Positions 34,247-35,422 of a DNA stretch of 64,000 bases are shown here, piece by piece. The notes under the pieces are model-generated. The model was not told the origin of the DNA and did not search any database. It saw only the letters and a list, made by a program, of their open reading frames with translations. Every line of letters begins with the position of its first letter. Within the stretch, counting starts at the first letter, position 1. The position numbers and the translations under genes are program-made. The DNA is from a bacterium (GTDB taxonomy: Bacteria; SAR324; JACQKK01), in assembly GCA_965240465.1 (NCBI GenBank), contig OZ251219.1, positions 160,001-224,000 of the forward strand. The letters are read 5' to 3'.

Positions 34247-35422
34247 CTAATATCTTGGCAGTGAGGGGTCTATCTCCTTAGCCCAGCTGTCTATTCCCCC
34301 TTCTACACTGACAGCATTGAGGAAACCTTGTTCCTGCATTATACGCACCGCAGTTTCTGAGCGAATGCCATGATGACAATATACAAAAATCTTTTCCTCC
34401 TTAGGCAATAAATCCAAACCATTCGGCAAATCACCAACCGGAGCCAACCGTGCCCCCTTGATGCGTACCATGTCCCATTCATGAGGCTCTCTCACATCCA
34501 CCAGAATGACATTTCCCTTGCCCATGGATTGCTGAAGTTCTCTCACTGTTGCAGTTGGAACAGGAGTTTCCTCTGTTTTTTTCTCAGCAGTGTCCGCCTG
34601 ACTGGCATTCACAAATGATTCATAATCCATAAAACCTCTCAGACTGGGGTTATCTCCGCAAAGCACACACTTCTTGTTTTTTGCCATTTGCAGGGTTCGG
34701 ATGCTCATATCTAAGGCATCATACAGAATCAACCTATTTTTCATGACCTTGCCAATACCCACGATAAACTTTATCGCCTCGGTGGACATCAGCAAACCCA
34801 CCACGCCTGGGAGCACGCCTAAGACACCTGCTGTGTTTCAATTCGGTGCCAGGCTAGGCGGCGGCGGGACCGCGTACAAACAACGATAACAAGCCCCTCC
34901 CTCACGCGGAATAAACAAACTAACTTGTCCTTCAAATCTAAAAATAGATCCTGATATCAATGGCAAACCCGCGAACCACGCCGCATCGTTCACTAAATAT
35001 CTAGTTTCAAAATTGTCCGAACAATCCAGCACTAAATCCCAATCAGCAAAGATAGACTCCACATTCTCCACCGTTAAACGCTCCCGATACTCCTTCACCT
35101 CTACATAAGGATTCAGAGCCTTGATGCGACGCACCATTGATTCTGACTTTGGCCGGCCAACACTGGCGGTGTCATGGGCAATCTGCCGATTGAGGTTGCT
35201 TTCTTCTACCAAGTCGTTATCCACCACTCCTATAGTACCCACTCCTGAAGCTGCCAAATAAATCCCCACTGGCGAGCCTAATCCACCTGCCCCAATGTAC
35301 AACACCCGTGCCTGCTTCAAACGCAACTGCCCCGCTACTCCCACCTCCGGCAAAATTAAATGACGATTGTATCGCCGGCTCTCATCAGGCGACAACATTT
35401 CATCTGGTGTTCTATCCGACAT
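34247..35422 (-). CDS. moeB: MoeB/ThiF-family adenylyltransferase with C-terminal rhodanese (MoeZ-type); in-frame TGA at 34838-34840, probable selenocysteine (U195 of 391 aa)
   Basis: ORFs 34838..35428 and 34247..34816 share one frame: [31 protein letters not shown]. Also GAGGLG, SNLNRQ, DCSDNFETRY, CVLC, and rhodanese DVREPHE...YCHHGIRS. ATG 35422 follows GGAGAG. Confidence 0.88.
34786..34836 (-). promoter_or_regulatory. Candidate bacterial SECIS hairpin 3' of the in-frame UGA
   Basis: Manual pairing: ACA-CAGCAGG (+2..+11) with UUUGCUG-A-UGU (+42..+52), plus an upper stem CCCA/UGGG closing a G-initiated loop GGCGUGG at +31. Alternative folds are possible; not computed. Confidence 0.4.

Follow-up and report, generated by a model that had tools for sequence, protein, structure and literature searches.

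The locus described here raises the question of whether an in-frame TGA in the middle of a gene marks the end of a broken reading frame or encodes selenocysteine (Sec) and, if Sec, what that residue does in the enzyme. The gene lies on the minus strand at positions 34247..35422 of a 64,000-nucleotide stretch of a bacterial genome of the SAR324 lineage (the window; contig OZ251219.1, positions 160,001 to 224,000). A mechanical listing of open reading frames (ORFs) splits it into 34838..35428 (196 amino acids) and 34247..34816 (189 amino acids) in the same frame, and translation of the minus strand from 35428 to 34247 gives a single frame whose only in-frame TGA is at 34840-34838. Both agree with an initial annotation of this DNA, made from the letters alone, which had described two ORFs in a common frame parted by TGA; its gene coordinates are right, but it did not state the strand. 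Read on the plus strand, 34247..35422 yields a meaningless translation, and we discarded that reading. We prefer ATG 35422 over GTG 35428 as the start codon because a Shine-Dalgarno-like GGAG, read from the sequence at 35430..35433 on the minus strand, stands 7 nt 5' of the ATG. With this start and the TAG stop at 34249-34247, the frame comprises 391 codons and the TGA codon (34838..34840, minus strand) falls at residue 195, the position of the crossover-loop catalytic Cys, which gives the 391-residue product with U195 that had been proposed. From sequence comparison, we consider it very probable that this TGA encodes Sec, in a 391-residue selenoprotein.

The first line of evidence is the conservation of the codon in relatives. 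In a read-through search covering 88 genomes of the window's phylum, full-length ThiF-rhodanese orthologues, at 45-68% identity, turned up in no order but the window's own; of the 57 rows, 52 contain exactly one TGA and five contain none. With a duplicate contig of genome G009 removed and the partial genes of genomes G016 and G032 left out, 56 orthologues were aligned. The column of U195 holds TGA in 51 of these, which span two families, and Cys in the other five. Cys is thus the sole alternative residue, as in the classic Sec/Cys pair. The initial annotation had placed the TGA in a conserved Cys column and had proposed looking to relatives for the same codon; the alignment bears out both points, with Cys in the column in five orthologues as well as in the solved homologues MoeB (C187) and Uba4 (Cys202). 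A quick tree groups the four single-copy Cys forms in one clade (support of 100 in the Shimodaira-Hasegawa-like approximate likelihood ratio test) within the clade of the order (support of 99), placed beside five Sec forms with a support of only 80. The fifth Cys form is a divergent second copy in genome G026. The rows from other phyla were picked by a pattern that requires TGA, and the tree is uninformative on Sec/Cys history outside this order. The removed duplicate reflects two contigs, G009:C6 and G009:C11, that carry the same gene at identical coordinates (27998-29161), most likely a contig duplicated in the assembly.

The genome, a single contig of 1,599,138 bases that is 83.6% complete by marker genes, encodes the machinery for Sec insertion. 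We found selD (335.7 bits), selA (469.7 bits), selB (299.9 bits) and a tRNA-Sec (67.5 bits), all above their curated cut-offs, with ARAGORN reading the tRNA anticodon as tca; the selA, selB, selC and selD expected of a selenoprotein-producing genome are therefore all accounted for. The selD gene, which lies outside the window (G000:C1:828737-829654, locus L001), itself contains one in-frame TGA and probably encodes a selenoprotein too. Because TGA terminates five of the 31 open frames of at least 250 codons in the window, UGA is not globally reassigned here. The half of the gene 3' of the UGA is under purifying selection, with dN of 0.28, dS of 3.8 and a ratio of non-synonymous to synonymous substitution rates (dN/dS) of ~0.07 against the copy from the same genus, the one pair for which the ratio was computable; dS is saturated in most pairs. 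A search of sequencing runs listed the stretch for no RNA data set; it listed it, letter for letter and hence with neither TGC nor TGT at this site, for two sets of contigs. Both derive from a single sample that may be the one this genome came from, and they do not count as independent support.

A second line of evidence comes from the nucleotides that follow the UGA, where the initial annotation had drawn a hairpin. An RNAalifold consensus, together with synonymous constraint, places a hairpin resembling a selenocysteine insertion sequence (SECIS) at +13 to +36 after the UGA (34802..34825, minus strand). Its core stem pairs +15..+20 with +27..+32, giving six base pairs and a 6-nt loop; the apical loop CGUGCU occupies +21..+26 (34817-34812), with a G at +22. 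A synonymous-site test was run on the 51 Sec forms, a set assembled from protein similarity without any DNA pattern. Their codons +5 to +9 are nearly fixed as GTC CTG GGC GTG CTC, with codon entropies of 0.53, 0.28, 0.14, 0 and 0.14 bits where the gene as a whole averages 1.47 bits (173 informative columns), and the hairpin region is the lowest seven-column window of the gene. At these positions the amino acids are unchanged in the five Cys forms, but the codons vary. Stem pairs are kept in 49-51 of the 51 Sec forms, while the core pairs +15/+32, +17/+30 and +20/+27 drop to one to three of the five Cys forms. At free third positions, +17/+30 is U-A or U-G in 51/51 Sec forms compared with 1/5 Cys forms, and +15/+32 is paired in 50/51 compared with 3/5. 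We read this conserved hairpin as a predicted SECIS.

The window's own copy of the hairpin weighs against this assignment. The folding energy of its 29-nt segment is -5.2 kcal/mol, a value equalled or bettered by 173 of 200 shuffled sequences; the folding z-scores of its 3' region are 0.77 and 1.02, so that its minimum free energy is no better than that of shuffles. The stem reads CUUAGG/CCCAGG, in which a change of CTG to TTA leaves an A.C mismatch at +18/+29 that is found in two of the 51 Sec forms. The hairpin of the same-genus copy is likewise weak, at -7.2 kcal/mol, whereas a typical relative reaches -14.3 kcal/mol. Within the eroded stem of the window, the loop CGUGCU and the top G-C pairs are unchanged. 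Since the window has a G+C content of only 44%, AT drift may have eroded the SECIS stem in this genus. As thermodynamics is insufficient by itself, the case for the hairpin in the window's copy is its conservation in relatives, and the hairpin drawn initially is upheld on that ground but not by its own folding.

The same arrangement recurs well beyond this order. We scanned species-representative genomes with a DNA pattern in which TGA is followed, after 12 free bases, by the hairpin core; it captures one SECIS type only. At least 119 stretches from several phyla match, and each of the 80 loci retrieved specifies a ThiF/MoeB homologue whose U stands in the same motif. By record title, the matches come from Rokubacteria/Methylomirabilota, Poribacteria, Verrucomicrobiota, Planctomycetota, Actinomycetota and one Acidoferrum, as well as from metagenome-assembled genomes titled SAR324, Lambdaproteobacteria or 'Deltaproteobacteria'; the nearest named record to the window protein among the matches listed is a SAR324 cluster bacterium, at 55% identity. 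By a home-made profile, a rhodanese domain is fused in 78 of the 80 loci, N-terminally in 62 and C-terminally in 16, the two misses being cut genes. Pfam searches of seven of the 80 give the order Rhodanese-ThiF in six and ThiF-Rhodanese in one. Since most hairpin bases are fixed by the pattern, this set can inform only on the free ones, with a purine at +30 in 70/72 and a pyrimidine at +15 in 71/72.

Two side observations concern individual members of these sets. Among the fused rhodanese domains of the Sec forms listed, three of 78 have Asp in place of the catalytic-loop Cys; the loop of locus L092 reads TYDAGGNRS, and we assume, having obtained only the count, that the three are the Planctomycetota loci L092, L129 and L139. 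The rhodanese may be inactive in these forms, with Sec nonetheless kept. Separately, the orthologue L074 (G050:C2:508077-509225) has a long branch and a mosaic look, its residues ~105-200, including the Sec site, being closer to the Verrucomicrobiota copy L088 than to its own clade; recombination or a chimeric assembly could account for this.

As judged from its domains, the gene product is an E1-like sulfur-carrier-activating enzyme in which a ThiF/MoeB adenylation domain is followed by a C-terminal rhodanese. The adenylation domain covers residues 18-252 (34667..35371, minus strand) and matches positions 1-236 of the 238 in the Pfam profile PF00899 (1.1e-80, 270.6 bits against a cut-off of 28.1, in a search of the read-through protein). 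The rhodanese domain covers residues 292-382 (34277..34549, minus strand; PF00581, 6.9e-17). Pfam's own residue numbers, 20-254 for ThiF and 294-384 for Rhodanese, count from GTG 35428 rather than from ATG 35422. Because the ThiF domain spans the UGA, neither half-ORF contains this domain complete. The nucleotide-binding loop GAGGLG (residues 44-49; 35276..35293, minus strand) has its four Gly and its Leu invariant in 56/56 orthologues and its Ala in 54/56. The first zinc CxxC pair, C178-Y-R-C181 (34880..34891, minus strand), is invariant at all four residues in 56/56, as are both Cys of the second pair, C252-V-L-C255 (34658..34669, minus strand), and C349, G352 and R354 of the rhodanese loop C349-HHGIR-S. 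The motifs NLxRQ and DxSDN are also present, their key residues invariant in 56/56. This confirms, for the Cys, Gly and Arg residues, the claim that the two CxxC pairs and, in the rhodanese, the CHHGIRS loop are intact.

Against NCBIfam, the top two models are MoeZ (NF005902, 424.8 bits against a cut-off of 647) and the rhodanese-first MoeB (NF006444, 421 against 449), while the MoeB subfamily model NF004281 is passed (289.1 bits against 266). As the NF005902 cut-off of 647 bits is missed, the enzyme is MoeZ-like in its working and yet not classed as a MoeZ equivalog. An AlphaFold2 model built from 57 aligned sequences has a mean predicted local distance difference test score (pLDDT) of 88.2, with low values only in the block 191-200 that forms the U195 loop (pLDDT of 57) and in the linker. 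A Foldseek search with this model returns full-length Uba4 (6yub_A) as the top match (E of 3.6e-35), with MoeB (1jw9_B; root mean square deviation (RMSD) of 1.4 Å, TMt of 0.96) and ThiF also among the matches. In the model, and by these superpositions, the adenylation domain adopts the E1 fold.

Comparison with solved structures by phmmer identifies the residue that Sec replaces. In the 1jw9 alignment, the residue opposite U195 is by our count C187 of E. coli MoeB, the one named in the initial annotation; in Chaetomium Uba4 it is Cys202, which is replaced by Lys (C202K) in the trap structures 6yuc and 6z6s. Uba4/MOCS3 is the best match in the Protein Data Bank by both sequence and fold, and its layout is the same, an adenylation domain followed by a C-terminal rhodanese whose persulfide Cys corresponds to C349 here. 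It differs in having Cys in place of Sec and in its carrier, Urm1 as opposed to ThiS and MoaD in this genome; the identity is 31% in the Foldseek alignment, and we see no sign of protein conjugation for the U195 enzyme. The crossover-loop Cys202 of Uba4 is reported to form a thioester with Urm1, and the loop to be disordered in the apo enzyme (PMC7527816), which compares with the low pLDDT of the U195 loop in our model. PMC11662940 reports that the thioester is seen only when Cys202 is present and that thiocarboxylate formation requires both Cys202 and the rhodanese Cys397.

Other relatives share parts of this architecture. MoeZ/MoeZR, the M. tuberculosis CysO activator (NF005902), and the rhodanese-first MoeB (NF006444/PRK08762) are likewise fusions of ThiF and rhodanese domains, and they activate carriers of the MoaD, CysO or ThiS type. 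The U195 enzyme differs in scoring below the equivalog cut-offs and in having Sec instead of Cys, and a Pfam scan of its neighbours in the window found none of cysO, cysM or mec beside it. The adenylation domains of E. coli MoeB (1jw9) and ThiF (1zud) superpose on the U195 model with an RMSD of 1.3-1.4 Å and a TM of 0.96; they share the GxGxxG loop and the zinc Cys4 site, and MoeB also has the Cys column (C187). These two are rhodanese-less and separate, each specific to its pathway, whereas in the present genome both pathways seem to share one Sec enzyme.

The gene content of the genome bears on which carriers the enzyme would activate. The U195 gene is the sole PF00899 match genome-wide, and there are exactly two ThiS/MoaD-family matches: a ThiS near the gene and a MoaD fused to MoaE. 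The thiS gene (41844..42050, minus strand; Pfam ThiS, 3.5e-10) encodes 68 amino acids from MSIIIH to the terminus ...LTAVMGG, and the thiazole synthase gene thiG (40944..41780, minus strand; Pfam ThiG, 7.2e-100) lies directly 3' of it. This pair is 6 kb from the U195 gene on the same strand, and ThiS is a likely substrate. The MoaD-MoaE fusion is a single 240-residue ORF (L040 1489-2211; G000:C1, about 526.4-527.1 kb). Its carrier part ends ...PPLGGG and continues directly into MoaE. MoaC and two copies of ThiE are also present in the genome. Since the Sec enzyme is the only ThiF-family enzyme of the 1.6-Mb genome, we infer that two carriers are adenylated by it at their C-terminal Gly-Gly, ThiS for the thiamin thiazole and MoaD for molybdopterin; synthesis of both would then depend on Sec insertion. 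Two points count against this dual role. With MoaD fused to MoaE, the carrier would have to be cut after its Gly-Gly before it could be activated, and at 83.6% completeness the genome may contain a second E1 elsewhere, even though it is a single contig.

We propose that the UGA would be decoded by SelB with Sec-tRNA(Sec), directed by the hairpin, the predicted SECIS, that starts ~13-15 nt downstream and lies within the codons of the conserved GVLGVLPG motif. The enzyme would first adenylate the C-terminal Gly of the carrier at the expense of ATP; the U195 selenolate would then attack the acyl-adenylate to give an acyl-selenoester, which the rhodanese persulfide on C349 would attack in turn to give an acyl-persulfide, from which the carrier thiocarboxylate would be released. 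We regard the chances for and against the acyl-selenoester step as evenly balanced. Its basis, a pure analogy with Uba4, weighs against it; moreover, C187 of E. coli MoeB is dispensable, and C184 of ThiF forms an acyl-disulfide rather than a thioester. Since MoeB and ThiF depart from Uba4 in these ways, the role of the residue in this column varies among members of the family. More tentatively, and with somewhat less confidence than in the acyl-selenoester itself, we suggest that the protein may be a natural "seleno-E1", in which Sec is the nucleophile, the selenoester hands its acyl group to the persulfide of the rhodanese more rapidly than a thioester would, and thiamin and the molybdenum cofactor (Moco) are selenium-dependent. 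If so, the retention of Sec in both rhodanese orders and in several phyla would point to a catalytic advantage wherever a rhodanese is fused.

The most serious alternative accepts U195 as Sec but gives it a resolving or relay function with no acyl-selenoester. Here U195 would cleave the acyl-persulfide on the rhodanese Cys and leave an Se-S bond, or would join the carrier thiocarboxylate in an acyl-selenosulfide, the role put forward for C184 of ThiF acting on ThiS. Exchanges of this type suit Sec, which is good both as a nucleophile and as a leaving group. ThiS is among the two carriers in this genome, and 78 of the 80 Sec forms among the matches listed have a rhodanese fused to them, which fits an interplay of Sec and persulfide equally well. 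The acyl-disulfide intermediate identified for ThiS-ThiF, as cited in PMC11662940, is a further point in favor, and the step that releases the thiocarboxylate is described there as uncharacterised. In the closest solved relative of the same layout, Uba4, however, the aligned Cys is reported as the sole thioester site and as essential for thiocarboxylation (PMC11662940), and we consider a resolving role rather unlikely.

Much less probable still, to the point of being very improbable, is that the UGA does not specify Sec at all and is instead read through as Trp, Cys or Gly, by near-cognate decoding or reassignment, or that each ORF makes a polypeptide of its own and the two then assemble. The inserted residue is not decidable from the sequence alone, and the second ORF has a GTG (34816) within the hairpin loop that could be cited for independent initiation. 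Global reassignment is contradicted by the TGA that ends five of the 31 long frames; also against these readings are the full Sec machinery of the genome, Cys as the only alternate in the column, a nucleotide-level constraint 3' of the UGA that is confined to the TGA forms, and the position of the UGA in the middle of the ThiF fold. That the TGA is a nonsense mutation or a sequencing error in a pseudogene is the least probable reading of all, for although ordinary gene calling truncates the gene, a 194-residue product stands in the public protein set and the SECIS stem is eroded in this genome, the TGA is shared by 51 of 56 orthologues in two families and by no fewer than 119 stretches in other phyla, the half of the gene 3' of it remains intact (dN/dS of ~0.07), all catalytic motifs are kept, the sole ThiF-family gene would be lost from a genome that retains ThiS-ThiG and MoaD-MoaE, and two contig sets of one sample carry no variant letters.

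Selenoproteins of this kind have been listed since 2005, and the gene in the window is a further member of the MoeB selenoprotein family, genuine and mis-annotated. A "Molybdopterin biosynthesis MoeB protein" is reported as one of 15 new selenoprotein families, with 11 sequences, from the Sargasso Sea in 2005 (PMC1088965), and a MoeB selenoprotein family with 19 sequences appears in the 2008 analysis of the Global Ocean Sampling data (PMC2398784), which substantiates the statement in the initial annotation that Sec-containing MoeB homologues had been noted in marine metagenomes. The Olavius symbiont study (PMC1976440) reports MoeB as not detected as a selenoprotein; reviews of 2022 and 2026 list it (PMC9312934, PMC13188914). 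The 2005 family of Zhang, Fomenko and Gladyshev (COG0476, PF00899), itself a prediction, likewise has an in-frame UGA paired with Cys and a downstream bacterial SECIS, and we find the same features here: ThiF/MoeB homology, a conserved TGA/Cys column, a 3' stem-loop with a G in the loop, and selA, selB, selC and selD. The Sec site of those 2005 and 2008 sequences is presumably the same as U195. Our literature search on Sec-containing MoeB, MoeZ and Uba4 found no biochemical characterisation, in keeping with the initial annotation, which knew of none, and a search on selenoproteins of SAR324 found nothing further on MoeB.

Relative to the 2005 record, the present gene sits in a complete 1.6-Mb genome whose nearest named relatives are of the SAR324 cluster, and it encodes the sole E1. 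To what was known we add the synonymous-site test against natural Cys forms and three observations: the gene is the sole E1 of a reduced genome that has retained ThiS as well as MoaD, the hairpin stem has eroded in this genus, and the UGA and hairpin core recur in several phyla whichever of the two domains comes first. The description of the gene as hidden from standard callers also proves apt: the public protein set holds its N-terminal half as a 194-residue protein ending at the UGA, together with a 190-residue counterpart. Most of the best 120 public relatives of this half are ~187-216 residues long, and among the names given are 'adenylyltransferase/sulfurtransferase' and 'ThiF family adenylyltransferase [SAR324 cluster bacterium]'.

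The immediate neighbours of the U195 gene are unrelated to it. An LplA/LipB-like ligase gene is found at 33371-34222, and beyond it on the minus strand lies an ordinary cluster of the Tol/Exb type with ExbB, ExbD, TonB-C and OmpA-family genes (30824-33174). On the other side, hrcA-grpE-dnaK-dnaJ (35792-40906) occupies the plus strand, also an ordinary neighbour. Elsewhere in the genome, just 5' of moaDE at L040 1041-1340, we observe an ORF of tandem ~21-residue repeats (SSLNRITHSSLNRITQLARSI), and the DNA there is therefore repeated as well.

For this organism, one selenoenzyme seems to gate two cofactor pathways in a small genome, tying both thiamin and Moco synthesis to the supply of selenium. 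Because public gene calls cut the enzyme at its UGA, metabolic reconstructions of these lineages would wrongly score both pathways as broken. For the family, the enzymes with Sec where Uba4 has its thioester-forming residue and their natural Cys counterparts in sister genomes make up a pair with which the benefit of selenium to an E1-like enzyme could be tested.

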